In this document: one piece after another, positions 1-57,890 of the stretch
Position numbering within the stretch: position 1 is the stretch's first letter
Layout: every line of letters begins with the position of its first letter
DNA from: Balanoglossus misakiensis
Lineage: Eukaryota; Animalia; Hemichordata
Assembly: GCA_040954595.2 (NCBI GenBank)
Contig: CM082590.2
Coordinates: 10,938,088 to 11,002,087 of the forward strand
DNA: 64,000 nt
Reading direction: 5' to 3'
Translations under genes and position numbers: made by a program
The notes under the pieces: generated by a model
Databases searched by the model: none
What the model saw: only the letters and a program-made list of their open reading frames with translations
Told to the model about the DNA's origin: nothing

Positions 1-3000
1 ACGACCTGCCCAGAATTGTCCGTGAAAAGTCCTTCAAATACGACAAAGGCAGTTGTATTGCCATCATCGATTTCAACAACTAGATTGGAGGGACAAGTGG
101 CAACTGGACGGGTTGTATCTGAGAAGAGAAAAGAAAAGGAAACACACTGAGATTTTCAGGCCTAAACAACCATTAGGTACAACAACAAATGTTTACAGGA
201 ATCCTATGTCACCATCAGATCAACTGTTTGATTGACTGTTTGATTGATTGATTGATTAAAAGACTCTCTAAAAGTCGTACCTTGTACAGTGACACTGAAA
301 GTGCAATTTGCACCATTTCCCGATGCATCTGTTGCAGAACATGTGACATCTGTATTGCCACTACTGAAAGTTGAACCAGAAGCTGGATCACATGTGACTG
401 CAAGACTGGCCCCTGAATTGTCACTTGCTGATCCACTGAATGTTACCACAGCAGTTGGACCTCCATTGTATTCAGCTGTCTGATCAGCTGGGCAAGTGAT
501 GACTGGTCTGATGGAATCTGAAAATGAGCAAGGGTGTTACATTCATTTCAAACTTGTACATATCCTGCTTTCACTGCTTGTATAACATCATCCATCCAAC
601 TCTTTCTAATTGAAAGCACCTCCAGAGATCTTTGTAAGACTTAAACTTACCTCCAACAGTCACAGTAAATGTGCATGTTCCCACATTTCCATCCAGATCG
701 ATGGCTGAGCATGTCACTATCGTGTCTCCACTGATGAAAGTAGAATTTGATGGCGGGTCGCACATCACTGCCAGTTGCTGTCCTGAATTGTCTATGGCTG
801 ATTCACCATCAAACACAACAACAGCAGTCGTGTTTCCAAAATCATATTCCATGGTAATATTTGAAGGACATGTCAATGTTGGCCTCGTAAGATCTAAAAA
901 AAGTATACATGTATATAATATAGAAGAGCATCGTCTAAAACAGCATGTCAGTTTGCTACGAGTTCATTTTGTACTACCAATTAAAAAAGCTGTTATATTG
1001 TGTTCAGATGTGACCAAGAATATTCTACCGCATCACAAGTACACTTAAATTAGTAAAATTGGCAACAAAGAAGAATAGATACACATACCTTGCACGGTAA
1101 TTGTAAAGTTACAAGTCCCAATATTGCCAGTTGCATCAATAGAAGAACACGTCACAACTGTATCTCCACTCTCAAATGTGGAATTAGAAGGCGGATCACA
1201 GGTCACTGCGAGCAGATGTCCGGAATTGTCAGTGGCTGACTCTCCATCAAAGAATACAACAGCAGTTGTGTTGCCGTAATCATTCTCGCTAGTAATGTTG
1301 GCAGGGCATGTCACAATGGGCATGGTGGTATCTGCAAAAAACAATTATCATCAGCAATGAAGGCAGGTTGTTCTTAGAAACTTTTGGATGGTCTTTAGTG
1401 TAGTGCAAGAAGAGATATTTGAAATAGGAGTGGAGAAGCTTCAGAAAAGAATTTCACAAACCACCAGTAGAAAACTTCTTCAACATATCTGGCAAACAGG
1501 GCTTTTTCCAGTTGATTGCTAGACTGCTGACGGTCTGTGACAAAAGACTAAATACATCAATTGAATTAGGATTCAAAGTTATTACCTTCAACAGTTACTA
1601 TGAAAGCACAAGTTCCCACATTTCCAGCCACATCAGTAGCAGAGCATGTCACTATTGTGTCTCCGCTAACAAACGAAGAATTCGATGGCGGGTCGCACGT
1701 CACTGCCAGTTGGTGTCCAGCATTGTCAATAGCCGACTCTCCACTAAACACAACAACTGCAGTTGTATTGCCGTAGTCGTATTCAACTGTAACATTTGAT
1801 GGGCAGGATACAACAGGGCTTATGGTGTCTGAAAAATAAACATATACAATGCAGTTATTGACATCATTTCCATGACATAAATCTTGACATCCACTTCCAA
1901 AATGTCAAAACGCTCATATCAGCTGCTCTTAGATTGGACACAAAAGATACAATCACATACCTTGGACAGTTACTATGAAACGACATGTTCCTACATTTCC
2001 AGCCATATCTGTGGCATTACAAGTCACAATTGTGTTTCCGTTGGTGAATGTAGAGTTCGATGGTGGATTACACATCACTTCTGGTTGATATCCAGAATTG
2101 TCTACAGCCGACTCGCCATCAAAAAGCACAACTGCAGTTGTATTGCCGTAGTCGTATTCAACAGTTACATTTGTGGGACAAGTCAAGACGGGATTGGTGG
2201 TATCTGAAATATTACATTGATTTTGTAAATAGCCACATCAAGTATTGGACAGTCTAACAAAATGTGGAGAAAATACACAATGCAAATGGTCATTTGTGAG
2301 TAGCAAATGGTGAAATGTGACACTTGCAAGTGGTGACAAGTATCATTCTAATGACCCCAGTTAGGACTAATTCCTACAGTTTTTCAACATGCACAGAAAC
2401 AAATCAAGGGTACATACCTTGTACAGTAATGGTGAAGCTACAATTTCCAGTGTTGCCAGCCCCATCCATAGCAGAACATGTCACTACATTGTCTCCATTC
2501 ACAAAGGTAGAATTAGATGGTGGATCACAGGTTACTGCAAGGATGTGTCCAGAATTGTCCAGAGCTGATTCTCCGCTAAATTCCACAACTGCTGTGGTAT
2601 TTCCATAATCATTCTCAACTGTCATATCAGCTGGACATGTTACTACTGGATTGGTTTCGTCTGAAACGGATAAAGTTAAAACTTTGAGCTGATCAACCAA
2701 TAACAGGTGTTACTATCCAGGAAGAAACAATTACAAAAAGTAATATTCACAGTCACAAAATACGAACCTTGTACAGTAATGGTGAAGCTACAGTTTCCAG
2801 TGTTTCCAGCCACATCAGTAGCAGAACAAGTCACAACATTCTCTCCACTGAAGAAAACAGAATTGGAGGGCGGATCACAGGTTACAGCGAGTATTGCTCC
2901 AGAATTATCCATTGCTGATTCTCCACTGAACTGAACGACAGCTGATGTGTTTCCATATTCATTCTCCACCACGATATCACCAGCTCCATTAAATTCTACC

Positions 3001-6000
3001 ACTGACGTTGTATTTCCGTTCTCATATTCAACCGTCAAATTATTCGGACATGACAATACTGGCGCTGTTGTGTCTGTGGAATGAAAGTTATTTTAAAGAT
3101 TATTCTACAATAGTGTCTGTTTTCATGGAAGATCACAGAACTTAACAGAGGAGATTGGAAGTGTCCAAATGAAATGCATACAAGGTCTGGAAAATGTGGT
3201 TTGATGAAATCATTCTTCGTTTGAACAACTCTGAGAGTACAAACCTTGAACAATCACAAAAAAGGTACACGCTCCAACATTTCCAGCCACATCCGTAGCA
3301 GAACACGTCACAACTGTATCTCCACTCTCAAATGTGGAATTAGAAGGCGGATCACAGGTCACTGCGAGCAGATGTCCGGAATTGTCAGTGGCTGACTCTC
3401 CATCAAAGAATACAACAGCAGTTGTGTTGCCGTAATCATTCTCGCTAGTAATGTTGGCAGGGCATGTCACAATGGGCATGGTGGTATCTGCAAAAAACAA
3501 TTATCATCAGCAATGAAGGCAGGTTGTTCTTAGAAGCTTTTGGATGGTCTTTAGTGTAGTGCAGGTGAGATACTTGAAATAGGAGAGGAGAAGCTTCAGA
3601 AAAGAAATTCACAAACCACCAGTAGAAAACTTCTTCAACATATCTGGCAAACAGGGCTTTTTTCCCTTTGATTGCAAGACTGTTGACGGTCTGTGACAAA
3701 AGACTAAATACATCAATTGAATTAGGATTAAAAGTTATTACCTTCAACAGTTACTATGAAAGCACAAGTTCCCACATTTCCAGCCACATCAGTAGCAGAG
3801 CATGTCACTATTGTGTCTCCGCTAACAAACGAAGAATTTGATGGCGGGTCGCACGTCACTGCCAGTTGGTGTCCAGCATTGTCAATGGCTGACTCTTCAC
3901 TAAATACAACAACTGCAGTTGTATTGCCGTAGTCGTATTCAACTGTAACATTTGATGGGCAGGATACAACAGGGCTTATGGTGTCTGAAAAATAAACATA
4001 TACAATGCAATTTTTGACATCATTTTATGTCCATGACGTAAATGTTGGCATCCAGTTCCAAAATGTCAAAACGCTCATATCAGCTGCTCTTAGATTGGAC
4101 ACAAAAGATACAATCACGTACCTTGGACAGTTACTATGAAACGACATGTTCCTACATTTCCAGCCATATCTGTGGCATTACAAGTCACAATTGTGTTTCC
4201 GTTGGTGAATGTAGAGTTTGATGGTGGATTACACATCACTTCCGGTTGATATCCAGAATTGTCTACAGCCGACTCGCCATCAAAAAGCACAACTGCAGTT
4301 GTATTGCCGTAGTCGTATTCAACAGTTACATTTGTTGGACAAGTCAAGACAGGGTTGGTGGTATCTGAAATATTACATTTGTAAATAGCCACATCAAGTA
4401 TTGGACAGTCTTACAAAATGTAGAGAAAATACACAATAAAAAATGGTCATTTGCGAGTAGCAAATGGTGAAATGTGACACTTGCAAGTGGTGACAAGTAT
4501 CATTCTAAAGTCATCACTCGCAAAAGATACATTTGACCACAGTTGGCACATGTCACAAAAAGTATACATACCTTGCACAGTGATTGTAAAATTGCAGCTT
4601 CCAATGTTACCACTCTCATCAGTAGAACTACAAGTAACTGCATTGTCTCCACTCACAAATGTAGAATTTGATGGTGGATTACAAGTAACTAGAACACTCT
4701 TTCCAGAATTATCTGTTGCCGACTCTCCACTGAATTCAACCACTGCTGTTGTATTGCCGTAGTCGTATTCAACAGTTACATTTGTGGGACAAGTCAAGAC
4801 GGGGTTGGTGGTATCTGAAATATTACATTTGTAAATAGCCACATCAAGAATTGGACAGTCTAACAAAATGTGGAGAAAATACACAATGCAAATGATCATT
4901 TGCGAGTAGCAAATGGTGAAATGTGACACTTGCAAGTGGTGACAAGTATCATTCTAAAGTCATCACTCGCAAAAGATACATTTGACCACAGTTGGCACAT
5001 GTCACAAAAAGAATACATACCTTGCACAGTGATTGTAAAATTGCAGCTTCCAATGTTACCACTCTCATCAGTAGAACTACAAGTAACTGCATTGTCTCCA
5101 CTCACAAATGTAGAATTTGATGGTGGATTACAAGTAACTAATACACTCTTTCCAGAATTATCTGTTGCCGACTCTCCACTGAATTCAACCACTGCTGTTG
5201 TATTGCCATAGTCATACTCCACTGTCAAACCAGCAGGACAGGTTACCATGGGATTTGTTGTGTCTGGAAATAATAATGTGATCAGACAGTTGAAATGTAG
5301 GCATTCAATGTGTAAATGTGAAATTGAACAATGTCCATAAGGTAAACAAGGGACTTGATTCAAGTTACATGAATGACCCCAGTTAGGACTAATTCCTACA
5401 GTTTTACAACATGCACAGAAACAAATCAAGGGTACATACCTTGGACAGTAATGGTGAAGCTACAATTTCCAGTGTTGCCAGCCCCATCCATAGCAGAACA
5501 TGTCACTACATTGTCTCCATTCACAAAGGTAGAATTAGATGGTGGATCACAGGTTACTGCAAGGATGTGTCCAGAATTGTCCAGAGCTGATTCTCCGCTA
5601 AATTCCACAACTGCTGTGGTATTTCCATAATCATACTCTGCTGTCAAATCCGCTGGACATGTTACAAGTGGATGAACAGAATCTGGAATAGATTTGAAAT
5701 AATATCCATATTTATCTTTACACATAGAGACAAACAATGGCCGAGTACAACAGGACAATCTTATGTTTAATCTATTATATTACATACCTTGGACAATAAT
5801 TGTAAAGTTACAAGTCCCAATATTGCCAGCTGCATCAATAGAAGAACATGTCACTACATTGTCTCCACTCATGAATGTAGAATTAGATGGTGGATCACAT
5901 GTTACTGACAGAATTGCTCCAGAATTGTCTGTAACTGATTCTCCGCTAAATTCCACAACTGCTGTGGTATTTCCATAGTCATACTCAACCATCGAATCAG

Positions 6001-9000
6001 CAGGGCAGATTACAACCGGATCAGATGTGTCTGTAAAAGACATGAACAGATAATTTCAAGTTAATAATAATAATAATAATATTTATTCCAGACTTTTAAA
6101 GAATAAAAGTCTATATACTCAAAATACTAAGTTAAGTCTATCATTGCCAAGTTTTCTTCCAAAACAGGCCATCATAACTTGTTTTGAGTCTTCCTGCAAT
6201 ACGTGCAGTAGAACAATTGAAAATAACTACACATTAATATGGTGGATTGATTGATTGGTTGATTCATTTATTGACTGATTGATGCTTATTATCACATATT
6301 ACCTTGCACTGTGATTGTGAAGTTGCAAAGGCCAATATTCCCTGATGAATCAGTCGCAGAACAAGTCACAACATTCTCTCCGCTCATGAAGGTTGAATTC
6401 GATGGTGGATCACAGGTTACAGGCAGTATTGCTCCAGAATTATCCATTGCTGATTCTCCACTGAATTCCACAACTGATGTGGTATTTCCATAGTCATACT
6501 CAGCCATCAAATTTGTTGGACATGTTAGTACTGGTTTAGTTGTGTCTGTACAATGAGTAAATAGGATATAAATTCCATAATAATGAGATCAGAAGATTTT
6601 CTTTTCAGGTTTTTGGGGGGGATAAAAAAATTAACATTTTCAATGACACAATAGATGTATACATACACACATTACACATATTTATATCCAGTACATGCAT
6701 CCACAATGCAAGATGCACAAAGACAGACACAGTCAGACAGATTGACAGACAGATAGACAGACGGACAGACAGACAGACAACAGGTCATAGCTCAAGATGT
6801 ACTATGTTCAATCCTACCTTGTACAGTTACCAAGAAACCACAAATTCCAACATTTCCAGCCATATCCGTTGCAGAACAAGTCACAACTGTATCACCACTG
6901 ACAAATGTAGAATTTGATGGTGGATTACAAGTGACAACCAGTTGATGTCCAGCATTGTCAGTGGCAGACTCTCCATCAAAGAAAACAACAGCAGTTGAAT
7001 TTCCATAATCATACTCCAAAGTCACATTTGATGGGCAATTAACAACTGGGCTTGTTGTGTCTGTAAAAAATAGAGATAAATGATATAAATAGACAAATCT
7101 GTTCATAAAACGTGGTTCTGATATGGTAGCTAGGGTTATGTTGTCATTGTGATAAAGTGTTGCCCAAAATACACATCATAATTCTCCGAAAGGCCTTTAA
7201 CATTTAACACAAACAGTATCTTATATAAAAATCATTTTTTACATCACAAATAATAGATAAGGCAATGGAAGTGAGTGAGGATGAGAAAATGTTAGTTTAC
7301 CTTGCACTGTAACAATAAATGTACATGTTCCAACATTTCCAGATGCATCACTTGCCGAACATGTAACAACAGTGTTGCCACTTTCAAAAGTAGAATTCGA
7401 AGGCGGATCACAGGTGACTGCAATGTCCTGTCCAGAATTATCCATGGCTGATTCACCATCAAATAAAACAACGGCAGTCGTATTTCCAAAGTCGTACTCG
7501 ACGGTGATATTTGTTGGACACATCACCACAGGGTTGCTTGTGTCTGGAAAATAAAATTTCATAAAATACAAGATAGTAAATCAAAACGTAAGGAACCCTA
7601 TTTTTCCTTTTTTGTCTGTGTTTAAAGTGCCCTTGAGCAAAACCATACTACATATTTATAAATAAAAATGTCTTCCACTGTACAACCTTGGTCCGGAAAT
7701 CCTGTATCAGGCAGTGTCGCAATCTTAAAATCACATTGCTCAAAAACTTTCATTTTACAAATGTTCCTTTACCTTGCACTGTCACTGTGAAACTGCATGT
7801 ACCCACATTTCCAGCCATATCTGTAGCTGAACAAGTCACAGTTGTATCTCCAGTGAAAAACGAAGAATTCGATGGCGGGTCGCACGTCACTGCCAGTTGG
7901 TGTCCAGCATTGTCAATGGCTGACTCTCCACTAAACACAACAACCGCGGTTGTATTTCCATAATCATACTCAACAGTGATATTTGAGGGGCATGTTACAT
8001 CTGGCGGTGTTGTATCTGGAAAATGCACAGCAGGCAGGATAAAACAGACAGCCTACAATGTGAAGTAATTTTCCAAACTACGCATGAATATATAAGCCAA
8101 CTATTTTTGACCAACAGTGAATCATATATTGTCCGTCTGGACATATTGAGTTACATAGCTTCACTTTTCTCTGATTCTCTTTCTCTGTGCTGGAAAAGCT
8201 AATATGTCACTTACCTAATACTGTCACAAAGAAACTACAGGTTCCTACATTTCCAGAATTGTCAGTAGCAGAGCAAGTCACAACACTATTTCCACTCATA
8301 AATGTAGAATTTGACGGTGGGTCACAAGTCACAGCCAGAAGATGTCCAGAATTATCCACAGCCGACTCGCCATCGAAGAAGACAACAGCAGTTGTATTTC
8401 CATAATCGTATTCTATCGTTATGTTGGATGGACATGTAACAACTGGATGGGTTGTATCTGCAAGAGAAATATATTTCCACAGGTTAAAGGGACAAAGTCT
8501 TTCTCTCGCTACGCTTTTCCATAATTTATGTTTGACACGAGACACTGTTTCTGTTATTCTACATGTGGATAAATAGTGAATCAACGTTCAACCACACACA
8601 ACTTCCATTCCGTTTGTAGGATATGATTATAAATATACAGTTGGACTGAGCATGATATGATGTGAAATAACAAATACATAATGCGTTTTGAACATTCAAT
8701 AAACCTACCTTGCACAGTAACTATGAACTGGCAAGTTCCCACATTACCGTCGAAATCAGAAGCTGAACAGATGACAATATTTATTCCGCTAGGAAATGTA
8801 GAATTTGATGGTGGGTCACATGTCACATTGACTTCATGGCCAGAGTTGTCTGTAGCTGACTCGCCACTAAACACAACAACAGCACTTGTATTTCCGTAGT
8901 CATATTCAATGCTGACATTTGATGGGCAGACAACAACTGGATTTGTGGTGTCTGGAAAAAAAGATTGGCAATGACATTTTGAAGAAAGATAAAGGATTCT

Positions 9001-9403
9001 TTAAAAAACTGTTGCCTGACCAGGCAATAGTTTGAAAACTGTTGATACTTAGCTTTTCTTTGTTTGCAATAATGCCCAAAGTCTTTGGAACTTTTGCCTG
9101 GCTATGTTGGAAAGTACCATGTAGACAAGCTTGATGACAGCAGAAAACAGTGCATTATCTTACCTTGTACAGAAACAGAGAACGAGCAACTGCCTGCATT
9201 TGAGGATGCATCAGTCGCACTGCAGGTGATGTCAGTAACGCCGCTTGCAAAAGTTGATCCGGATGCTGTATCACAAATCACTGCAGGTGTTGTTCCTGAA
9301 TTATCCGTTGCAGATGAACTGAATGTTACCACAGCTGTTGTGTTACCATAGTCATACTCAACTGTCAGATTAGCCGGACATGCAAGGATAGGACTGGTTG
9401 TAT
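1..9403 (-). CDS. HYR exon block, distal part (22 exons)
   Basis: Exons: <1-118, 281-517, 651-893, 1089-1331, 1586-1828, 1961-2203, 2418-2660, 2768-3073, 3245-3487, 3742-3984, 4122-4364, 4572-4814, 5021-5263, 5440-5682, 5788-6030, 6303-6545, 6818-7060, 7301-7543, 7773-8015, 8215-8457, 8709-8951, 9164-9403. Most are 243 nt (81 aa) and encode one 4-Cys HYR domain. Confidence 0.92.
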
Positions 9404-15400: not shown

Positions 15401-18400
15401 AAAGAATAGATCGCTGCTAAATACATCAATTGAATTAGGATTAAAAGTTATTACCTTCAACAGTTACTATGAAAGCACAAGTTCCCACATTTCCAGCCAC
15501 ATCAGTAGCAGAGCATGTCACTATTGTGTCTCCGCTAACAAACGAAGAATTCGATGGCGGGTCGCACGTCACTGCCAGTTGGTGTCCAGCATTGTCAATA
15601 GCCGACTCTCCACTAAACACAACAACTGCAGTTGTATTGCCATAGTCGTATTCAACTGTAACATTTGATGGGCAGGATACAACAGGGCTTATGGTGTCTG
15701 AAAAATAAACATATACAATGCAATTATTGACATCATTTCCATGACATAAATCTTGACATCCACTTCCAAAATGTCAAAACGCTCATATCAGCTGCTCTTA
15801 GATTGGACACAAAAGATACAATCACGTACCTTGGACAGTTACTATGAAACGACATGTTCCTACATTTCCAGCTATATCTGTGGCATTACAAGTCACAATT
15901 GTGTTTCCGTTGGTGAATGTAGAGTTCGATGGTGGATTACACATCACTTCTGGTTGATATCCAGAATTGTCTACAGCCGACTCGCCATCAAAAAGCACAA
16001 CTGCAGTTGTATTGCCGTAGTCGTATTCAACAGTTACATTTGTGGGACAAGTCAAGACGGGGTTGGTGGTATCTGAAATAGTACATTTGTAAATAGCCAC
16101 ATCAAGTATTTGACAGTCTAACAAAATGTGGAGAAAATACACAATGCAAATGGTCATTTGCGAGTAGCAAATGGTGAAATGTGACACTTGCAAGTGGTGA
16201 CAAGTATCATGCTAAAGTCATCACTCGCAAAAGATACATTTGACCACAGTTGGCACATGTCACAAAAAGTATACATACCTTGCACAGTGATTGTAAAATT
16301 GCAGCTTCCAATGTTACCACTCTCATCAGTAGAACTACAAGTAACTGCATTGACTCCACTCACAAATGTAGAATTTGATGGTGGATTACAAGTAACCAAT
16401 ACACTCTTTCCAGAATTATCTGTTGCTGACTCTCCACTGAATTCAACCACTGCTGTTGTATTGCCATAGTCATACTCCACTGTCAAACCAGCAGGACAGG
16501 TTACCATTGGATTTGTTGTGTCTGGAAACAATAATGTGATCAGACAGTTGAAATGTAGGAATTCAATGCGTAAATGTGAAATTGAACAATGTCCATAAGG
16601 TAAACAAGGGACTTGATTCAAGTTACATGAATGACCCCAGTTAGGACTAATTCCTACAGTTTAACAACATGCCCAAAAACAAATCAAGGTTACATACCTT
16701 GTACAGTAATGGTGAAGCTACAATTTCCTGTGTTGCCAGCCCCATCCATAGCAGAACATGTCACTACATTGTCTCCATTCATAAAGGTAGAATTAGATGG
16801 TGGATCACAGGTTACTGCAAGGATGTGTCCAGAATTGTCGAGAGCTGATTCTCCGCTAAATTCCACAACTGCTGTGGTATTTCCATAATCATTCTCAACT
16901 GTCATATCAGCTGGACATGTTACTACTGGATTGGTTTCGTCTGAAACGGATAAAGTTAAAACTTTGAGCTGATCAACCAATAACAAGTGTTACTATCCAT
17001 GAAGAAACAATTACAAAAAGTAATATTGACAGTCACAAAATACGAACCTTGTACAGTAATGGTGAAGCTACAGTTTCCAGTGTTTCCAGCGACATCAGTA
17101 GCAGAACAAGTCACAACATTCTCTCCACTGAAGAAAACAGAATTGGAGGGCGGATCACAGGTTACAGCGAGTATTGCTCCAGAATTATCCATTGCTGATT
17201 CTCCACTGAACTGAACGACAGCTGATGTGTTTCCATATTCATTCTCAACCACGATATCACCAGGTCCATTAAATTCTACCACTGATGTTGTATTTCCATT
17301 CTCATACTCGACCGTCAAATTATTCGGACATGACAATACTGGTGCTGTTGTGTCTGTGGAATGAAAGTTATTTTGAAGATTATTCTACAATAATGTCTGT
17401 TTTCATGGAAGATCACAGAACTTAACAGAGGAGATTGGAAGTGTCCAAATGAAATGCATACAAGGCCTGGAAAATGTGGTTTGATGAAATCATTCATCGT
17501 TTGAACAGCTCTGAGAGTACAAACCTTGAACAATCACAAAAAAGGTACACGCTCCAACATTTCCAGCCACATCAGTAGCAGAACACGTCACAACTGTATC
17601 TCCACTCTCAAATGTGGAATCTGAAGGCGGATCACAGGTCACTGCGAGCAGATGTCCGGAATTGTCAGTGGCTGACTCTCCATCAAAGAATACAAAAGCA
17701 GTTGTGTTGCCGTAATCATTCTCGCTAGTAATGTTGGCAGGGCATGTCACAATGGGCATGGTGGTATCTGCAAAAAACAATTATCATCAGCAATGAAGGC
17801 AGGTTGTTCTTAGAAGCTTTTGGAAGGTCTTTAGTGTAGTGCAAGAAGAGATATTTGAAATAGGAGTGGAGAAGCTTCAGAAAAGAAATTAACAAACCAC
17901 CAGTAGAAAACTTCTTCAACATATCTGGCAAACAGGGCTTTTTCCAGTTGATTGCAAGACTGTTGACAGTCTGTGACAAAAGAATAGATCGCTGCTAAAT
18001 ACATCAATTGAATTAGGATTAAAAGTTATTACCTTCAACAGTTACTATAAAAGCACAAGTTCCCACATTTCCAGCCACATCAGTAGCAGAGCATGTCACT
18101 ATTGTGTCTCCGCTAACAAACGAAGAATTCGATGGCGGGTCGCACGTCACTGCCAGTTGGTGTCCAGCATTGTCAATAGCCGACTCTCCACTAAACACAA
18201 CAACTGCAGTTGTATTGCCGTAGTCGTATTCAACTGTAACATTTGATGGGCAGGATATAACAGGGCTTATGGTGTCTGAAAAATAAACATATACAATGCA
18301 ATTATTGACATCATTTCCATGACATAAATCTTGACATCCACTTCCAAAATGTCAAAACGCTCATATCAGCTGCTCTTAGATTGGACACAAAAGATACAAT

Positions 18401-21400
18401 CACGTACCTTGGACAGTTACTATGAAATGACATGTTCCTACATTTCCAGCCATATCTGTGGCATTACAAGTCACAATTGTGTTTCCGTTGGTGAATGTAG
18501 AGTTCGATGGTGGATTACACATCACTTCTGGTTGATATCCAGAATTGTCTACAGCCGACTCGCCATCAAAAAGCACAACTGCAGTTGTATTGCCGTAGTC
18601 GTATTCAACAGTTACATTTGTGGGACAAGTCAAGACGGGGTTGGTGGTATCTGAAATATTACATTTGTAAATAGCCACATCAAGTATTGGACAGTCTAAC
18701 AAAATGTAGAGAAAATACACAATGCAAATGATCATTTGCGAGTAGCAAATGGTGAAATGTGACACTTGCAAGTGGTGACAAGTATCATTCTAAAGTCATC
18801 ACTCGCAAAAGATACATTTGACCACAGTTGGCACATGTCACAAAAAGAATACATACCTTGCACAGTGATTGTAAAATTGCAGCTTCCAATGTTACCACTC
18901 TCATCAGTAGAACTACAAGTAACTGCATTGTCTCCACTCACAAACGTAGAATTTGATGGTGGATTACAAGTAACTAGAACACTCTTTCCAGAATTATCTG
19001 TTGCCGACTCTCCACTGAATTCAACCACTGCTGTTGTATTGCCGTAGTCGTATTCAACAGTTACATTTGTGGGACAAGTCAAGACGGGGTTGGTGATATC
19101 TGAAATATTACATTTGTAAATAGCCACATTAAGTATTGGACAGTCTAACAAAATGTGGAGAAAATACACAATGCAAATGATCATTTGCGAGTAGCAAATG
19201 GTGAAATGTGACACTTGCAAGTGGTGACAAGTTTTTGTTGCCTACCTTGTACAGTCAGAGTGAAATTACAGGAACCTGTGTTATTTGCTGCATCAGTTGC
19301 AGAACAGGTGACAATGTTATCTCCTAAGGCAAAGGCAGAGTTCGATGGGGGATCGCAGGTAATTGTGAGCGTTTCCCCAGAGTTGTCACTTGCTGATTCT
19401 CCACTGTAAGCAATTATAGCCGTGCTGTTTCCCATGTCATTCTCGACTGTTGTGTCGTTTGGACAAGTTACCACAGGAACAGCATCATCTGAAGATAATT
19501 TAAAGTGAAATTTAGTTACGGAAATTGGATCGTACTTTCCTTGCTGAACTGTGTTTGATTCCAGTGGTACATATTAAAGACATACAATTCTTTCTATATA
19601 CAGTTAAAAAAGCAAGTCTGGGCGTTCGCAAGAATATATAATATTATGGTCGTTTTTGCTTGGCCATCCACTGAAAATTTGTGATTGGCTCGATCTCCGT
19701 TTACCATGGTAACAGTGACTAAAGTTGCGTATGTGATATGATGTGTACTAGTGTCTTAGTAACGGCTCAAGATAGATGGACAGACAGAGGGCAATCTATT
19801 AGTCTAATAAAAATATAAAATACATCCTTTTTATATGTCAAGAAGCATGATACAGCTATAGACAATTTCACAGATAGGGTATCTGCAATGCATAATGGTA
19901 CAATTTGCGTTCAACATAGTGTCTAGTATATGGCTAATGCACGCACTCAGAACACAAACTGCCCCACAACTCCTTGTGTTATTCTATCCGCGAAGTGGTC
20001 TATGGGGAGCTAGACTTCTGAAAAGGTTGCATGTTACCTTTGAGACAGGTTGGAACAGGATCACTCCAGACGCCGTCGTAACACGATGAAGTACTTTCGC
20101 CTTGTAAGAGATAACCTGTGTCACAGGAGAAAGAGACTGTAGATCCATGGGTATAACTGGTAGCGTCTTGTTGTCCATTGGTTGGTGTCCCGGGATCAGT
20201 GCAGTCCGCTGAAGAACAATGATATTCACATTAATCGAGAGGCTCCCTTACATGTAATCAAGTGATGTCAGGAAGTGGCGTACACATATGCAGAGTGACG
20301 CATGAATTTTTTAATATCAACAGAGGCAACTATTTCACAATGATTAAAGGGACAAAGTCTTTCTCTCGCTGCCCTTTTTCCATTAATTATGTTTGATACA
20401 AGACACTTTTTATGTTAATGTACATTTGGATACATAGTGAATCAACGTTCAACCACACACAACTTCTCTTCTTTCACTAACTGTATCCTTGCACTTGAAA
20501 AATTTTGTGACTATTTATTTTCACGTTTTTCTGGCTCTCGCAAATTTATCGTTCGAGACATACATACCCAAGCAAGCGGGAAACACATCACTCCATCCAC
20601 CAGAAGTGCATGTAATGACACTTTGGCCAACCAAAGTGTAATTGGCATCACAGGCAAAGGTGACGGCCGTACCGTGTGTATAATCGGGAGTGCCAACCTG
20701 GTAACCATTTTGTGGACTGCCAGGGTCTGTGCAGTCCTCATCGCCTGAATGATAAAAAAAAATAGACACATGCATTTTAACCCTTTCATCCCCAGTTCCA
20801 TCTAAAGAGGTCCAGTTTTACCATGGAAAACAATGGTTTGGGGCCAAACCATTGTGGTGAAAGGGTTAATGAGCGTGTTGAAAGCATAAAAGAGGAACCT
20901 CATACTTAAACATTGAGGAATGGGGTCACTCCATGTTCCTTCATCGCACACAATGCTGCTCTCGCCAACTAAACTGTAACCTGGACTACATGAAAACGTC
21001 AGCGTGGAACCATGTGAGTAGTCTGGTGTTCCATCCTGTTGGCCATCTGTGGGTGTGCCTGGATCTGTGCAACTTTCTGTGCAAATAAAAACAATTGTGG
21101 CAATATTTAATAGGCTATTTAGTGTGAGTTCTTATATTGTGCAAAGTGATATCCACAATTGAATACACCCTTTTCATTAGTCGAGTTCCCTCATCATGAA
21201 TTTGAACTCAATGCGAGGCCAATGGGGAAAGTTGACCAATCACATCAAGGGGATTTCCCAATTGGCCTCGCTTTGAGTTCAAATTCATGATGTCTGCATG
21301 AGGGAACTAGACTTATGAAAAGGATGTTTAGTTGCAGAGTTAAAAAAATTATAAGTTCTGCGTTGTTTAAAAGCACGATAAGTCAGATATTGTTTGTCCT

Positions 21401-24400
21401 GTGTCACATGTGAATCTCCTCCCAAATAGTAATCTGCATAGCCACGCGAGATACTGGAGAGTCTCATAGAGTTCAGAAAATGGTCTACTGAAATTGAAAA
21501 CTGATTTTTGAACTCACCTATGCAAGTTGGAACAGCGTTACTCCACACACCACCCTCGCAAGTTATTGTAGTGGAACCTGACATTGTATATCCAGACGCA
21601 CACTGAAAAGTCACAGTTGATCCGTGAGTGTAGTCCGGATTTCCCACTTGGCTCCCATTAATCGGAGTTCCAGGATCTGAGCAATCCACTGGAGAAATGA
21701 CAGAAAAGATATTATTTAATATAATACATTTTAAATACAAAAATAGAGAGAAAACAGTATGTTCCCATTCAAAACCTTTCTGTCATCGATTCACCCTATG
21801 CATTCTGTAGTGGAACAATCATAATTTTACAGAGGGAATAAGTTTGAATCCCTCAAATCTGATGTCATTATATGTAACATTTCTCTAATAAACATACGTT
21901 CACATGTTGGTATGTCGTCGCTCCAAGATCCACCGTTACACGTGAGACTGGCTGTGCCCACAAGTGTATAATTGGTGAAACAGGAAAAAGCCACACTTGA
22001 TCCGTGGGAATAATCTGGGCTTCCGTCTTGTTTTCCGTTGGTAGGTGTGCCTGGGTCTGAGCAGCCAACTGGGAGGAAATGGAGTAGAATGTTAAAGGCC
22101 CATGAACTGCAACTTTTGCATTTTGTAAATTGTATCATATATATGCAACAAACCAGACAAGCTCAAGCAGTACACTGTGGCCTATACTGTCCTTGTTTCT
22201 GCGTTGCCTGCTTGGAGATGATGCATTGTTTGGGAAGGGTGCCCTCTTTATGAAAAAATGTGTATTGAAGAAATCCAATCTGATAAAATATGCTTACCTT
22301 CACACGTGGGCACTGGAGCACTGTAAGTTCCATTAAAGCAAGTGATACTGCCAGCGCCATCCAGTGAATGTCCAGCTGAACACTGGAAGCTCACGGTTGA
22401 TCCGTGAGTGTAGTCAGGATTTCCGACTTGAGACCCGTTGTTCGGTGTGCCTGGATCTTCACAGTCACCTGCATTCAAGAAACAACAGACATATTTCCAA
22501 TCCATCATTTAGTTTAAAGGGCATGTGCCAAACCGGAGACTCTGGTTACAAAAATTGTATACAGTCTATGCCATAAGCTATAAGGCAGTGTGCTGTCCTA
22601 ACAACTGACAAGATGGTGGCGACCATAGTCTGTGTCGGAGATCAGGAAAAGATATCAAATTGGGTGAAAAGAAGGGAAAAAACTAAAGTATATAAGATGC
22701 GCATGAAATTTGGAAGGCAGCGAAGGCAGTTAGATGATGGATAACAATAAAATAAAATCTCGTCAAAACTTACCATAACATATGGGTATGGAGTCACTCC
22801 ATGAGCCACCTGTACATGTGATTAAACTGTCGCCAACCAATGAGAAACCAGCGTCACACGAAAAAGAAACCGTTGAGCCGTGAGAATAGTCAGGACTTCC
22901 ATCTTGTTGACCATCTTCAGGGGTTCCAGGATAACTACAGTCACCTAATAAAGAAAAAGCACTTTTTGAAAAATGTTCTGGGGATTTCAATAAGATTTTA
23001 AAGATTTTGATATACCACAGATTTTAATATAAAAAGGGGTTTTAGGGTCAATACAGTCAGCTAATAAAGACTAACTTGATAAAAATGTTCCAGAGAATTC
23101 AATAAGATTCTATAGATTTTGACATGCCATAAAATTCAATAGAAAATGAGTAATAGAAATCTCCAGTTGTCCATAGAAATTCTATAAACTTATATAGAAT
23201 TCAAAAGGCTAAACAATTCTATAGATATGTATAGAATATCTTTATAATGGTTGTATTGTGTTGTGAGAACAAGAAAGAGCTCACCTACTCAGACACTTGG
23301 AAAGTAAAACATTCTATAAACTTCTATAGAAATTCAAAAGGCTAAACAATTCTATAGATGTCTATAGAATATCTTTGTAATGGTTGCATTATACAAATGA
23401 AAAAAAAGCTCACTTACTCAGACACTGGGGGATAGGATCACTCCAGTTGCCTGTCTCACAGCTTATACTACTGGAACCGATAAGACTGTAGCCAGATATG
23501 CAGGTAAAAGTAACAGTTGATCCATGAGAGTAATCAGGGCTTCCCTCTTGTGCTCCATTGGCCGGTGTGCCCGGGTCACCACAGCTGGCTGCAACAGACA
23601 TTTATTCCCTGTGAGTTCTGTGAAAAAGACAAGCAAAAAGGCAACAAAATGAAAGAGTGTCTCTTACCTATGCATGTGGGAACAGATCCACTCCATTGAC
23701 CATCGCCATCACAGGATATAACGCTTCTACCAAGTAATATATATCCTCCATTGCAAGCAAACTGGACAGTTGATCCAAAAGAGTAGTCAGGACTGCCTAC
23801 TTGGTATCCATCTGTTGGTGTTCCCGGATCGGTGCAATCCTCTGCAAAAAATGGTATAATACAGTCAAACCTGTGTTAGTGGCCACCTCTATATAGTGGC
23901 CACATTGTTACAACTTCCAAATACAATTTACTTGTGCATTAACTAACCTGTCTATAAATCCAGTTTAGGAAAAGTCCCTTGATTGGCCACTAAAGACAGG
24001 TTTGACTGTACAACTTTATCTCTCTTTCGTGGCCACCTCTAGTGGCCACATTGTTACATTCGACATCAAATAAATCTGAATGTTCCTATTGTCATGCAAA
24101 TACAGATATCGATAAACATGCTGCACTTTACTGTACAATGGCCAGGAATTTTGAAATTAAAAATGCTTGCACTCACTTGAATTCAATTCTTCACATTTTT
24201 ACATTACAAGAGGATGATTATCTTTCAAAACTTGAATGTCATAAAAAATGGAAGCCTGTGAGATTAGCGTCACTTTCGCAGGATGTTCTGTACGTAACAC
24301 GGACATTCATTTCCGTATCGCAGAGTCTTGTAGTATTGAAATGGGTGCCAGAACACTTACCATAACAGAGAGGCACAGACCCACTCCATGTTCCACTGCT

Positions 24401-27395
24401 ACAAAATATGAATCTGGCTCCAATTCGGGTAAATCCAGCATCGCAAGAAAACTCCACCGTTGATCCATCAGTATAGGACCCTGTCTGTGTGCCATTCACA
24501 GGAGTTCCCGGATCAGTACAGGCTGCAAGGAACAAAAAAGAGTAAAACTATCGAATGTGAACAAAGACAGTTTACTGACAATACAATTATAAAACATGAC
24601 CTGTCAACACTCTCCTTATCCTCAGCTAACAGACAATACCAATTTTAATATGTGAAGATTCTAATATATGCATGTCATGTTGGCTAATTTGCATAACAGT
24701 AGTGGTCATTGTTATGTTAATGAGTTTCGATTGTTATCTAAAAATTAAAGGATAGAGGCCCTTCTCTATAACTGAGCATACCACAATAGTTGTACACTTT
24801 TGCAACAGGAGGGTGTGGTACCATTTATTACTTAACTTATTATAAAAACAGTCACAATCAAAGTTGATAATAAATAAGCTTATTCATCAGTAAGCTTATC
24901 AAAGTGTAACATCATGAAAATAATGCAAAAAAGTGCACTTTTGACTTGATTTCCAGATGTTATGCCCACATACAAGGTGTGATTTGAACTGTCATACCCA
25001 GTGACCGAAAATATTTCTCAGAACAGAACGTAAAAAAACGAAAGTACCGACGGTAATGCCAAAAGTGTCCTTTAATGATGGTGTCCAATTTTGCTACTTG
25101 TATTGTATGTCGTTCTCAAGCAAGCCAAATAATCAGAGAGCGCCTCAACAAATAGCAAATAAGACGATTTAAAACGATTAGTGACATCTTTGCCCACACG
25201 CACCAAGCCTCATCACTTTGAATCCATGGCAACATCTCTGTTATTTAAATGAGCATTAAGTTTCTTCCTGGTATGGTTGGAATTTACCGTCCAAGCTCAA
25301 TAACAGACAAAACCTCGAGCTAGTACAGACAGAACTGTAGGCAGACAGAGTGCTTAAGCTTGAAAGAAAAATTGGAAAGTGATGATGAAGGCGTTCAAAC
25401 TCTAGACCAATACGAGAGTATCTTTGAAAACTGTCCAATCTACCTCTCTATGTCTCTCGAACTTGCTACCGTTTTCGCAAACAGATCACTTCCGGTTGTA
25501 CAAGATGAAATCAACAACACTTCACTATGTATCAACTTCCTCGCTTGTTCTTATAATAGATAAGAAACGGAAATATCCGAATGAGGTGCTCGGAACTCTT
25601 CGGAAAGTGGAGTCTTGTGTTACGTACGACTCCAAGCGAGTTACATGTACGATCCTCTCAAGATGAGGTGACTTTGAGGGTGTTTTTTTCTGGATTAACT
25701 AGCATTGTATGAGGTTTGCGCGAGAATTTAGTTAAATTTCACACTTTTCATGGTCTTTAGCAGTGACAACTCGTCAAAAATAAGATGCTGAAGAACTTCA
25801 TGTTGAGTGGCCAAAAAAGAACGATATATCGAGAGAAAAGAAACGTTTTAAAATATATAGAGATAAAAAAGATTAGCAAAAACAGCAAAGACACATTGCC
25901 ATTTGTAGAGAAATACTAGGTCATAGACCTTTCAATTGTAGGATCACGCTACAAGCTTAATACATACTGTATTGTAATTTGTTGGGTTTTAATGATGGAA
26001 TTCAATGGGTCGACAATTACCCTATTGTTCTGCTAGCAAAGCCTTTCGTTGTCAAATACTCCAAGATAGCCAAACTCGCCAGACTTGGAAATACCAGAGA
26101 CTGTTTACCGATAGGATTTGGTGGTTTAAGGGGTAAATAGTGTCAGTTACATCTATGATTGAATCACGAAAGTCTCTGCAATATACTTGTTTAGATATTA
26201 GACGCAGTGTCCATTTCTGTAAACACAGACGGGTGGAATTTTAAGGCGTTGCCTGAAAGTTACGTGGAAGTAATTGTTTTTTTCTCTCTCTCACGAAATG
26301 AACAACTTCGATTCTCAGTAATTTTCATCAACTGTCTGTTTGGAGCCTACATATCTCATCTTCTTTCCTTATTGTGTAAATAATTCCGAAATAAAGGGTC
26401 TCTCTCTCACAGGTGACCCGCATCTCAGGGTATAATTACCATCGCATTTAATTAATTAATCATAAACTGTTATGGTTCATGGTTATTGCTTTTCATGCTT
26501 CGTTTATCGGGTGATTTCAGTGATCTGTTCGCTTACTGAGTTATCGAGCAAAACGTAAAGAAATTTAAGTTTTAAATTTTCCTTTCGGCTAAACATGGTA
26601 ATGAACCATTTGGTGACGTGTATTGTGTTTTGACTTTACGTCGGAGAGGAGTTTAGTGTACACCAAATGGGAAGTAAAAGATCCTGCGAAATTATGGGAA
26701 ATTGACTACAAATATTTTAGGGTATCTCTATGTTCAGTTACCCGCATTTTCTGAGTGACGCGTATATTTGGTGACTCTAGTGCCAAATCAGGTTGAGTAG
26801 CTAAAGGCGTAGCATTTATTTTGCCAGTGAAATTGCTATGTGACGGCTATAGATGTTCACTGAAGCATAACGCGTTGAAAGGCGTTCGGCATTCCCCAGG
26901 CAATCAATCAATCTTACCGCTTCCCATATTACACAAAATCGTAGCCCGGAATTTTTTTATGCGCGTGTACGTACGCCAAGTATTCTTAACTGAAGTGTCC
27001 AGTTTCTAAGTTTACTGAAGAGAACGTTTTTTTTCAGGATTTTGTTTGTGGAGAATTGTAACTTAATGACATGCTGCATAGATCCCACGATCAGAACAAA
27101 TCCAGTGATCACATGACTTCACGACTTCATAATGGTCTTAGCCACTTAACAAAAAATATACTTCCAAGTGAAGATGACATTTTGACAACTGTAAATAGAA
27201 TGAGATCAGATCTCATAATTCAGATTGTAAGGGATGTAACAATCATTGATCTCAATGTTTTAACGAATGATTTTTTTACAACTTAGGCGTGGCTGAATAA
27301 CAGCGAACTATCTTACCTGTAGCTGAAGCAAAGGGCAGAGTTACCAGAATTCCACAAGCGCATAGCGCTGCTAGAATCACTTTTCCAGTTTTCAT
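1..27395 (-). CDS. Giant secreted sushi/CCP + HYR (hyalin-like) repeat protein; multi-exon, 3' end outside the window
   Basis: ATG at 27395, signal-peptide exon, 10 CCP exons, then 44 complete and 1 partial HYR exons. Each complete exon is bounded by AG/GT on the minus strand, has a length that is a multiple of 3, and sits between phase-1 introns. About 4,250 aa are encoded in the window. HYR and CCP were recognised by motif (DTTxPxxTCP...DNSG...TCxATDxxGNxGxCxFxVTV; C-x-D-P-G-T-P...F-x-C...C...W-S...P-x-C). Confidence 0.93.
8484..8621 (+). mobile_element. Dispersed repeat end beginning TTAA-AGGGACAAAGTC (Kolobok-like non-autonomous DNA transposon fragment)
   Basis: About 130 bp shared with 20344-20470 and 46448-46592, plus an inverted fragment ending at 37702. 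TTAA followed by AGG fits Kolobok-type termini; the family assignment is inference. Confidence 0.6.
9819..19488 (-). CDS. HYR exon block, proximal part (23 exons)
   Basis: Exons: 9819-10058, 10225-10461, 10595-10837, 11033-11275, 11530-11772, 11917-12159, 12369-12611, 12719-13024, 13196-13438, 13703-13945, 14078-14320, 14527-14769, 14948-15190, 15455-15697, 15830-16072, 16279-16521, 16698-16940, 17048-17353, 17525-17767, 18033-18275, 18408-18650, 18857-19099, 19246-19488. Confidence 0.92.
12300..19231. repeat. Nested tandem duplications of multi-exon units (periods about 1.75 kb and 4.33 kb)
   Basis: ~13250-14990 recurs at ~15000-16740 (exons 13703/15455, 14078/15830 and 14527/16279 are offset by 1752). 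~12300-14700 recurs at ~16630-19030 (12369/16698, 12719/17048 and 13196/17525 are offset by 4329). Confidence 0.93.
20038..24522 (-). CDS. Ten sushi/CCP domain exons of the same gene
   Basis: Exons in transcript order: 24361-24522, 23668-23841, 23418-23588, 22774-22944, 22298-22468, 21898-22068, 21518-21688, 20906-21076, 20568-20744, 20038-20208. Lengths are 162-177 nt, phase 1-1, each with 4 Cys and the conserved Trp (e.g. DCTDPGTPTDGYQVGSPDYSFGSTVQFACNGGYILLGRSVISCDGDGQWSGSVPTC). Confidence 0.93.
20344..20470 (+). mobile_element. Second copy of the TTAA-AGGGACAAAGTC repeat
   Basis: Aligns by eye with 8484-8621 and 46448-46592. Confidence 0.6.
20777..20869. mobile_element. piggyBac-like MITE (93 bp including TTAA flanks)
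   Basis: TTAA-CCCTTTCA...TGAAAGGG-TTAA terminal inverted repeats. A near-identical copy of the same length lies at 41711-41803. Confidence 0.8.
21169..21323. mobile_element. Long inverted-repeat (hairpin) element, probable MITE
   Basis: 21169-21230 (ccttttcattagtcgagttccctcat...gaggccaatggggaaa) is the near reverse complement of 21254-21323 apart from one indel; the loop is about 23 nt. Confidence 0.75.
23179..23426. repeat. Degenerate ~130-bp tandem duplication that includes a copy of a sushi-exon splice donor
   Basis: attctataaact...ggctaaacaattctatagat...gctcac(c/t)tactcagacact occurs twice (23179-23298 and 23311-23426). Confidence 0.75.
23862..24008. mobile_element. Tc1/mariner-pogo-type MITE
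   Basis: TA|CAGTCAAACCTGT ... ACAGGTTTGACTG|TA: perfect 13-bp terminal inverted repeats with a TA target duplication; 147 bp. Confidence 0.85.
27317..27395 (-). CDS. First coding exon (signal peptide) of the sushi-HYR gene
   Basis: MKTGKVILAALCACGILVTLPFASAT has a basic N-region, hydrophobic core and A-S-A cleavage motif. It ends at a G|GTAAGA phase-1 donor compatible with the first CCP exon. Confidence 0.85.
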
Positions 27396-41100: not shown

Positions 41101-41517
41101 AAATATCGGTGCAAAATTTGTTATTTTTGCTCATTTTTCTCCAATTTGTTGCTTAATTTTGAACCCAGTGGCCACAATTCTCCATTGGCTACATGCTGGA
41201 TTGTTTTCTAAATCTTTATATGTCATTATGACAAATTTATGCATGTTTTTAACTTTTCAAAATTTTTTTCCTGCCTAATTTTTCCTGCAGGTCATCCGTT
41301 ATGGATGTCATCCAAGTGGTTGTCTATGAACGTACTGATGTTGGACGAGAAACGCGTCATCTGTGACGCCAACGAAATCCCAACTCAGAAGATGTTCGAG
41401 CGTTTGGGAATCAAGCCCATACCAATCTCCATCCGACATGCAAACTCACTCGGAGGAGGATTCCATTGCTGGACCTCCGATATCCGACGCCGAGGCAAAC
41501 TAGACAGCTACTTCTAA
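32456..41517 (+). CDS. GATM: Glycine amidinotransferase (L-arginine:glycine amidinotransferase, AGAT), mitochondrial; 7 coding exons, 416 aa
   Basis: Exons 32456-32521, 36320-36523, 39156-39351, 39767-39957, 40285-40422, 40736-40964 and 41291-41517 sum to 1251 nt (416 aa + TAA), with GT-AG introns and consistent phases. Motifs [38 protein letters not shown] and GGGFHCWT include the catalytic Asp/His/Cys. Confidence 0.97.
35143..35295. repeat. Compound (GAT)n/(GGT)n trinucleotide microsatellite in GATM intron 1
   Basis: Alternating GAT and GGT runs. Confidence 0.95.
36548..36830. repeat. TG-rich low-complexity tract in GATM intron 2
   Basis: Degenerate (TTGTG)/(TTTG)/(TG) repeats directly after the exon 2 donor. 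Confidence 0.9.
39560..39745 (+). mobile_element. 3' end fragment of an L2/CR1-group LINE
   Basis: 39601 onward reads [17 protein letters not shown], the typical ORF2 C-terminal 'FK..LKT.LF' motif, followed by a short 3' UTR and an (ATTG)n tail. Confidence 0.7.
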
Positions 41518-46447: not shown

Positions 46448-46592
46448 TTAAAGGGACAAAGTCTCTCTCTCTTTGCCTTTTTCTCATTAATTACATGTAT
46501 GTTTGATACAAGACACTGTTTGTGTTATTCTACATGTGGATATAAAGTGAATCAACGTTCGACCACACATAAATTCCACCCCATCTGTAGGA
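46448..46592 (+). mobile_element. Third copy of the TTAA-AGGGACAAAGTC repeat
   Basis: Aligns by eye with 8484-8621. Confidence 0.6.
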
Positions 46593-57745: not shown

Positions 57746-57890
57746 AACTATAGATAAAAAATAAAAATTCTACAAACTATAGATAAAAAATAAAAATTCT
57801 ACAAACTATAGATAAAAAATAAAAATTCTACAAACTATAGATAAAAAATAAAAATTCTACAAACTATAGATAAAAAATAAAAATTCTACA
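57746..57890. repeat. 29-bp AT-rich tandem repeat, 5 copies
   Basis: AACTATAGATAAAAAATAAAAATTCTACA x5, perfect. Confidence 0.95.

Follow-up and report, generated by a model that had tools for sequence, protein, structure and literature searches.

A Balanoglossus misakiensis gene with 10 CCP and at least 45 HYR domains, probably the 5' part of a MUC4-like surface glycoprotein gene

A 64,000-nucleotide stretch of Balanoglossus misakiensis DNA (hereafter, the window) carries on its minus strand a gene for a signal peptide, 10 CCP domains and at least 45 HYR domains. The window probably holds the intact 5' part of a gene for a MUC4-like surface glycoprotein, which is likely to continue past the window edge into an EGF-NIDO-AMOP-vWD-C8-EGF module and a predicted membrane anchor. 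In such a protein, a folded, likely N-glycosylated rod of HYR domains would replace the Pro/Thr/Ser-rich (PTS) repeat. A MUC4-like membrane glycoprotein is likely because the HYR array at the counterpart locus of the acorn worm Ptychodera flava runs into EGF domains, NIDO and the start of AMOP, and then into a model with C8-3_MUC4 and EGF domains. An earlier reading, made from the sequence alone, had called the protein secreted, which is probably wrong, because the module into which the P. flava array runs ends in a transmembrane segment in full-length relatives.

A broader reading is offered only tentatively. The gene might belong to an undescribed acorn-worm subfamily of MUC4-like membrane proteins that arose before Ptychodera and Saccoglossus split; in its members, the mucin thread would have given way to exchangeable rods built of folded domains. 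In this gene the rod would consist of about 80-100 N-glycosylated HYR domains, arranged in a titin-like higher-order repeat, and in a neighbouring paralogue of more than 70 CCP domains, with PTS in a sister clade. The chain considered here might then comprise about 9000 residues or more, its height tuned by unequal crossing-over and in-frame exon skipping.

The CCP-HYR gene

Within the window, the gene comprises a leader exon, 10 CCP exons (24522 to 20038; 162-177 nt), 44 whole HYR exons (19488 to 281) and a 45th HYR exon (118-1) that is cut by the window edge. The exon model was made from a scan for open-frame segments preceded by AG and followed by GT, with odd cases inspected individually. 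All 55 introns are GT-AG, every junction is in phase 1, and the spliced frame of 4256 codons has no stops; the 5' part of the gene is thus intact. Each of the 4256 residues seen belongs to the leader, a CCP domain or an HYR domain, and NIDO does not occur in the window, whose edge cuts the gene. Pfam Sushi is passed by 10/10 CCP exons and Pfam HYR by all 18 of the HYR exons scanned (of 45 in the array). Four cysteines are kept in 44/44 whole HYR domains and in 10/10 CCP domains. Matches to local CCP and HYR profiles are confined to the minus strand of positions 1-27400, and each falls on a modelled exon, so no broken remnants lie between the exons. The sequence-only reading had proposed this layout, with intact frames and splice sites and each domain on a symmetric phase-1 exon, and it holds in full.

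That reading had also placed the CCP head and the very long HYR stalk in one gene. Neither a signal-peptide-like exon nor a poly(A) signal was found in the 549-bp intron between CCP10 and HYR1, whose HYR1 acceptor is in phase 1. Together with the joining of the leader to CCP1 in P. flava, this supports a single gene.

The counterpart locus in Ptychodera flava

The closest relatives of both the HYR and the CCP domains, in searches limited to 2000 residues, are P. flava RefSeq models located on one scaffold of 1,404,621 bp in assembly GCA_041260155.1. These are XP_070549888 ('C4b-binding protein-like'), XP_070549855/856/857/860/899/873 ('hyalin-like') and, downstream, a C8-3_MUC4 model. The model P0203 has a leader spliced to CCP1 and a collinear series CCP1-4, each of which best matches its window counterpart (42/54, 40/56, 45/56 and 27/38 identical residues, or about 70-80%). 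Such one-to-one conservation would suit a constant partner better than variable recognition.

Six HYR models on the scaffold together contain 79 HYR domains, whose mean best identity to window domains is 69-74%. The corresponding value is 67% for P0002 (same scaffold), 66% for the Glandiceps protein P0003, and 36-43% for all other HYR proteins tested, both the echinoderm giants and further P. flava HYR proteins. In a tree of 83 HYR domains, the window and main P. flava domains intermingle in a 100/100 clade that includes P0003 and stands apart from P0244 and P0090, and H23 (the domain of exon HYR23) clusters with the corresponding P. flava domains at 100/82. Domains H22-H24 form a triplet of 78, 79 and 79 residues, the only such run in the window. 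P0001 and P0243 have this triplet too, and P0006 and P0008 have part of it; it is the best normalised four-domain diagonal in all four models. The P. flava HYR models have the same sequon density as the window domains, and repeat make-up and recent duplications differ between the two.

The P. flava locus is likely orthologous to the window gene. It is annotated but unnamed, and is represented by automatic, fragmented models rather than by a characterised gene; where RefSeq has about ten misnamed fragments, the window supplies one clean and intact model of the gene. The sequence-only reading had recognised no named protein of this kind, which stands insofar as no characterised equivalent was found described but has to be amended for the annotated orthologous locus.

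Evidence for a MUC4-type C-terminus

In P. flava, P0008 and P0004 share a strand, with the HYR model P0008 less than 7 kb upstream, and a 205-aa HYR model is also in that run. P0004 comprises 13 HYR domains, EGF domains and NIDO, and breaks off where AMOP begins; no PTS tract is seen in it. A 1364-aa model with C8-3_MUC4 and EGF_CA lies 104 bp past P0004. The best 120 of the 130 matches listed for the P0004 NIDO region are mucin-4 or mucin-like or uncharacterised deuterostome proteins; among these 120, none is named nidogen, tectorin, SNED1 or SUSD2. Two duck entries named collagen carry only NIDO.

The order HYR-EGF-NIDO-AMOP-vWD, with GDPH, is also present in P. flava P0244 and Saccoglossus P0486. 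In a tree of NIDO domains, P0004, P0244 and P0486 form a 97/99 clade that is sister to hemichordate relatives with SEA domains and a transmembrane segment. Within this sister clade, the N-terminus of P0487 is 53% PTS, and hydrophobic segments are found near the C-termini of P0487, P0246 and P0248. CCP or CCP-like domains also precede EGF-NIDO in two echinoderm relatives, P0252 and P0249. Local profiles run over 488 proteins identify five that combine HYR or CCP with CCP, NIDO, AMOP or vWD. None of the 488 was found to place a long HYR array after a long CCP head within one model, although the HYR profile is not exhaustive and missed the Pfam HYR domains of P0249 and P0182.

Two further P. flava models, P0241 and P0137 (XP_070549841 and XP_070549840), have 63 and 10 near-identical CCP domains, are on the same scaffold, and have accessions directly before that of P0244. 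Judged by accession order, P0137, P0241 and P0244 are possibly one CCP-stalked paralogue. A paralogue with multiplied CCP domains implies that these domains, which the sequence-only reading had taken for a recognition head, can also serve as a stalk.

The Glandiceps protein P0003 (XP_077979658) has 16 near-identical HYR domains between pentraxin domains and a C-type lectin domain. P0003 shows that the HYR type of this clade has moved between genes.

Exons, array growth and selection

The exons of the gene are as follows, in the order of transcription.

27317..27395, minus strand: exon 1, ATG and hydrophobic leader, a predicted signal peptide; 26 codons and one further base, donor GTAAGA in phase 1
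24361..24522, minus strand: CCP1 exon, 162 nt; 42/54 residues identical to P0203 CCP1
23668..23841, minus strand: CCP2 exon, 174 nt; best match of P0203 CCP2
23418..23588, minus strand: CCP3 exon, 171 nt; best match of P0203 CCP3
22774..22944, minus strand: CCP4 exon, 171 nt; best match of the partial P0203 CCP4
22298..22468, minus strand: CCP5 exon, 171 nt; Tyr replaces the usual Trp
21898..22068, minus strand: CCP6 exon, 171 nt; Pfam Sushi
21518..21688, minus strand: CCP7 exon, 171 nt; Pfam Sushi
20906..21076, minus strand: CCP8 exon, 171 nt; Pfam Sushi
20568..20744, minus strand: CCP9 exon, 177 nt; Pfam Sushi
20038..20208, minus strand: CCP10 exon, 171 nt; followed by the 549-bp intron to HYR1
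19246..19488, minus strand: HYR1 exon, 243 nt; single-copy type, at most 67% identity to any other HYR exon
14948..19099, minus strand: HYR2-HYR11, starting at 19099, 18650, 18275, 17767, 17353, 16940, 16521, 16072, 15697 and 15190; young partial copies of the repeat unit
9819..14769, minus strand: HYR12-HYR23, starting at 14769, 14320, 13945, 13438, 13024, 12611, 12159, 11772, 11275, 10837, 10461 and 10058; first copy of the 9.94-kb duplicated block
5021..9403, minus strand: HYR24-HYR33, starting at 9403, 8951, 8457, 8015, 7543, 7060, 6545, 6030, 5682 and 5263; older block, H24-H31 single-copy within the window
1..4814, minus strand: HYR34-HYR45, starting at 4814, 4364, 3984, 3487, 3073, 2660, 2203, 1828, 1331, 893, 517 and 118; second copy of the block, 97% identical to 9941-14719

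The 45 HYR exons represent only 22 sequence types, which follow one another as a b c d e f g h c d i h c d e f g c d j k l m n o p q r s t u v h b c d e f g c d j k l m. Blocks of exons and introns are duplicated in a nested fashion at 90-98% identity, and the largest duplicate has an offset of 9940 bp. Exon H34 is a mosaic of H18-type and then H12-type sequence with 0 mismatches to these parents, which differ from each other at 85/243 bases, and the switch point is in the bases that code for the conserved G-N-T-T motif. H2, H11, H20 and H42 are likewise mosaics of two parent exons, and such chimeric exons indicate that crossovers fell inside exons too. Three HYR exons of 306 nt, H6 (17353-17048), H16 (13024-12719) and H38 (3073-2768), each have a 21-residue internal duplication. 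The HYR array has expanded through unequal crossing-over in a tandem array, partly within exons, and all products stay in frame because the exon phases are symmetric (1-1). Frame-safe change of length at the DNA level had been anticipated from the sequence, and is confirmed by the nested duplications, the chimeric exons and the differing P. flava repeat make-up.

Among young exon copies in 10 families, 15 non-synonymous and 32 synonymous variants were counted, for a ratio of non-synonymous to synonymous variation (pN/pS) of 0.15 (p 3e-10). Older HYR paralogues have a pN of 0.20 and a pS of 0.68. In the 9.94-kb duplicate, the members of the 10 exon pairs differ by 28 mismatches and no gap over 2487 sites, those of the 11 intron pairs by 61 mismatches and 9 gaps over 1953 sites; the contrast in gaps has a probability of about 6e-4 (binomial, calculated by hand). 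The earlier observation that exons stay intact while duplicated introns gather indels is thereby put on a count, and the intact exons reflect purifying selection rather than youth alone. Diversification of sequence, which the sequence-only reading had also envisaged, fares less well, for the young copies are under purifying and not diversifying selection, and no finding speaks for diversifying recognition. Positive selection on these copies was considered and is rejected by the same ratio.

The region is also covered by DNA contigs from one sample, which may be the source of the window DNA; no copy number was obtained from them. The contigs of run X1 have a depth of 34-66 across the CCP region and of 71-76 across H24-H31, where they show no differences; the depth is 231 at H23 and 287-487 at the repeated types. 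One X1 contig links H23 to an H24-like exon via a different intron. These depths and this joint hint that the copies are real and that further copies are present beyond the window edge. Run X2 was excluded from the depth comparison owing to GATC-type loose ends and uneven depth. A clean whole-exon deletion was not found among the contig joints listed (15 of 37 in one set), and most of the joints involve intronic repeats.

Weaker donors (GTTTGT or GTTCGT) are found on six exons, in adjacent pairs of types e and f, at 17525, 17048, 13196, 12719, 3245 and 2768, and these exons are candidates for skipping. An upstream ATG at 27408-27397 (minus strand) opens a three-codon frame whose stop is one base before the start codon of the gene, and could damp translation. 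Short, high-copy elements resembling miniature inverted-repeat transposable elements are present in introns at 20343-20466, 8472-8605 and 46448-46576, and also at 23860-24015. Summed contig depth reaches several hundred thousand over 20343-20466, which is in the CCP block, and over 8472-8605, which is in the HYR block.

HYR domain properties and a proposed mechanism

The window HYR domains contain 139 sequons in 3660 residues, and have 419 Asp and Glu residues compared with 17 Lys and Arg residues. Acidic motifs of the DN[SA]G and DxxGN-like types are kept in 44/44 HYR domains. Structure prediction gives an all-beta sandwich (predicted local distance difference test, pLDDT, 89), whose nearest folds are PKD and bacterial Ig-like domains (Z 8.3-7.8; top 8.3 and 8.2). 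No solved structure matched the HYR profile by sequence (best E 0.08), and Foldseek with one HYR domain gave no match at E 0.001. An eight-domain P. flava model matches only generic multi-Ig chains in Foldseek and, with a predicted template-modelling score (pTM) of 0.33, yields no inter-domain geometry or calcium site. A likeness of the HYR domain to the SiiE calcium site was not confirmed.

The protein probably works as follows. The signal peptide, with a predicted cleavage, would take the protein into the secretory pathway. Each HYR domain would fold as a two-disulfide Ig/PKD-like sandwich with about three N-glycan sites, which are presumably occupied. Placed end to end, the HYR domains might form a hydrated, negatively charged spacer of roughly 0.2 micrometre for 45 domains or 0.3-0.4 micrometre for 80-100, because a domain measures about 4 nm in length. 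This spacer would raise the CCP cap over the epithelium, within the glycocalyx or mucus barrier, and the C-terminal module would anchor the protein. As in MUC4, self-cleavage at GDPH is probable by comparison with the paralogues, and the large subunit might then be shed. Stalk length shifts via unequal crossing-over between misaligned exon-intron units and, as the chimeric exons show, also inside exons; the symmetric phase-1 exons preserve the frame, and the purifying selection noted above keeps the domains foldable.

Passages of PMC8660890 describe GDPH self-cleavage and shedding for MUC4. In hemichordate epithelia, abundant mucin secretion and expanded clusters of vWD glycoproteins are described in parts of PMC4729200 and PMC13554239.

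Alternative explanations

Several points weigh against the proposed MUC4-like protein. The C-terminus of the gene is outside the window, and its MUC4-like end is taken from another species; moreover, it is paralogues, and none of the orthologous models, in which the AMOP body, vWD, GDPH and the transmembrane segment are seen. The NIDO tree lacks an outgroup from beyond MUC4, and the HYR tree rests on few columns with an unsettled bootstrap. The P. flava locus is broken up among many models of incomplete order, no called gene is found within 10 kb downstream of P0203, and the CCP-to-HYR link is not annotated in that species. The upstream neighbour of P0203 is histone H2A, as opposed to an amidinotransferase gene in the window. 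The raw best matches of the P. flava 78-residue and first 79-residue domains are not H22 and H23, and P0008, P0243 and P0006 are 92-94% identical and possibly allelic rather than tandem, which would reduce the count of 79 domains. Matches to the HYR fold are middling (Z about 8) and indicate no function. Finally, the same HYR clade is joined to pentraxin and C-type lectin domains in P0003, so HYR kinship alone cannot fix the C-terminus.

With the C-terminus past the edge, it is conceivable, although unlikely, that the gene encodes a hyalin-type protein of the embryonic or epidermal matrix or membrane with another ending, either the EGF/SEA/transmembrane tail of echinoderm 'hyalin' and 'mucin-3A-like' proteins or the pentraxin and lectin domains of P0003. 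Echinoderm models with 45-54 HYR domains, most of them with a C-terminal hydrophobic segment, are in keeping with this idea, as is the 66% identity of the P0003 domains that lie between pentraxin domains. However, the echinoderm giants reach only 36-42% per domain and have neither the CCP head nor the sequon density, whereas the nearest models (69-74%) share the N-terminus, the length triplet and the physical link to EGF-NIDO-AMOP-C8-3. Dscam and Sp185/333 are models for a quite different role, in diversified immune recognition, where exon skipping and copy-number change would make binding variants and the CCP head would be a complement-like sensor. All exons being phase 1-1 and skippable in frame, chimeric exons that generate new domains, the six weaker donors, and isoform numbers up to X45 in the echinoderm HYR giants, which suggest cassette splicing in analogous genes, would suit this role. 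It is nevertheless very unlikely: pN/pS is 0.15 in young copies and pN is 0.20 against a pS of 0.68 in older paralogues, the 45 exons yield just 22 types, and the variability is located in the stalk, while CCP1-4 correspond one-to-one with P. flava (about 70-80%). The likely paralogue with more than 70 near-identical CCP domains also fits a spacer role.

Another concern is that the size is inflated by two haplotypes assembled in tandem, or that the CCP and HYR blocks are separate genes; both have some basis, in that the largest duplicate is 97% identical, near the allelic divergence of the CCP region (at most 11 differences in about 600 bases), and P. flava annotation puts CCP and HYR in separate models. 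Two exon types, however, are present six times, which exceeds what two haplotypes can give. The unequal X1 depths (71-76 over H24-H31, 231 over H23, 287-487 over repeated types) argue in the same direction, as a hint from one sample, and the X1 contig that joins H23 to an H24-like exon over a different intron points to more copies beyond the edge. The phase-1 acceptor of HYR1 and the CCP10-HYR1 intron, with neither leader exon nor poly(A) signal found in it, argue against two genes. Both possibilities are most improbable, and false duplication and the two-gene reading are largely rejected on these grounds.

Comparison with known systems

Vertebrate MUC4 is laid out, in sections of PMC5354666 and PMC8660890, as a signal peptide, a PTS tandem repeat, NIDO, AMOP, vWD with GDPH, EGF and a transmembrane segment, and PMC4948705 mentions MUC4 briefly. 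The window gene resembles it through the orthologous P. flava locus, with its EGF-NIDO-AMOP start and C8-3_MUC4, through NIDO matches to mucin-4, and through paralogues with vWD and GDPH; in both, the N-terminal stalk is very long, built of repeats and changing in length. In contrast to the O-glycosylated PTS repeat of MUC4, the stalk in the window is folded, disulfide-bonded, sequon-rich and encoded by one exon per domain. The window gene also has a CCP cap, and its hemichordate relatives have many more EGF domains as well as SEA domains. Invertebrate mucin4-like proteins with varied N-terminal domains are known from a passage of PMC9080433. An unfolded, Pro/Thr/Ser-rich, O-glycosylated repeat, which defines a strict mucin, is absent from the 4256 residues seen of a gene that continues past the edge. 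The window protein, as far as it is seen, is thus not a strict mucin, yet it likely works like one.

Hyalin is a component of the embryonic hyaline layer and assembles in a calcium-dependent manner. The long tandem HYR array is a likeness to hyalin, and its scale, which the sequence-only reading had thought unmatched, is in fact equalled by echinoderm RefSeq models with 45-54 tandem HYR domains in chains of 4100-5400 residues, often with a C-terminal hydrophobic segment. Examples are Lytechinus XP_041472953 and XP_041454283, Asterias XP_033626662, Acanthaster XP_022111822, and crinoid and sea-cucumber models. These giants differ from the window gene in their low per-domain identity (36-42%), in having no CCP head or NIDO by local profiles, and in having 5-30 sequons each, against 139 in the 3660 window HYR residues. 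Orthology to sea-urchin hyalin finds no support in identity, which has a mean best value of 39-42% for hyalin and hyalin-like proteins of Lytechinus and Strongylocentrotus compared with about 70% for P. flava. Five echinoderm RefSeq models (P0365, P0370, P0373, P0378 and P0383), which go by the names hyalin, mucin-3A-like or uncharacterised, are type-I membrane proteins and carry 40-54 HYR domains. Their isoform numbers run up to X45, and they are apparently little described.

SRPX and SRPX2 are small proteins with three CCP domains, one HYR domain and a C-terminal peroxiredoxin-like domain. Like SVEP1/polydom and SRPX, the window gene joins CCP and HYR within one extracellular protein; its 10 CCP and at least 45 HYR domains set it apart from the SRPX layout. 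In SVEP1/polydom, according to PMC12549020, the CCP and HYR units are preceded by N-terminal vWA and ephrin-like repeats and followed by EGF, pentraxin and a CCP tail. In the window gene, by contrast, the leader directly precedes the 10 CCP domains, with no N-terminal vWA or ephrin-like repeats, there are at least 45 HYR domains rather than one or two, and relatives end in NIDO-AMOP-vWD rather than in pentraxin and a CCP tail.

Full-text searches of the open literature, main texts only, listed no paper on a hemichordate protein of the CCP-HYR or HYR-MUC4 kind. Symmetric exons, unequal crossing-over and long HYR arrays are each already known singly. What was not found described is the combination of a CCP cap, a giant sequon-rich HYR rod and a MUC4 module; the scale of the HYR array is not new. 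If correct, the proposed MUC4-like protein would join two families that are treated apart, the hyalin-repeat proteins and the MUC4-type membrane mucins, and would mean that not only PTS repeats but also folded, N-glycosylated domains can make up the spacer of a membrane mucin. Three types of stalk (HYR, CCP and PTS) would then stand on one conserved anchor within one animal group, which would bear on the evolution of the deuterostome glycocalyx and the mucociliary feeding surface.

Other features of the window

A multi-exon glycine amidinotransferase (AGAT/GATM) gene is located at 36290-41517 on the plus strand, divergent from the CCP-HYR gene. Pfam gave no match on five single exons of this gene, and its last coding segment (41212-41514) matches human L-arginine:glycine amidinotransferase in a PDB search (E 8e-38). 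A 60-bp minisatellite at 47436-52765 (88.9 copies, 98%) has stop-free frames of 1700-1800 codons on both strands and is probably non-coding. A perfect 29-bp tandem repeat is found at 57745-57892, in 5.1 copies.

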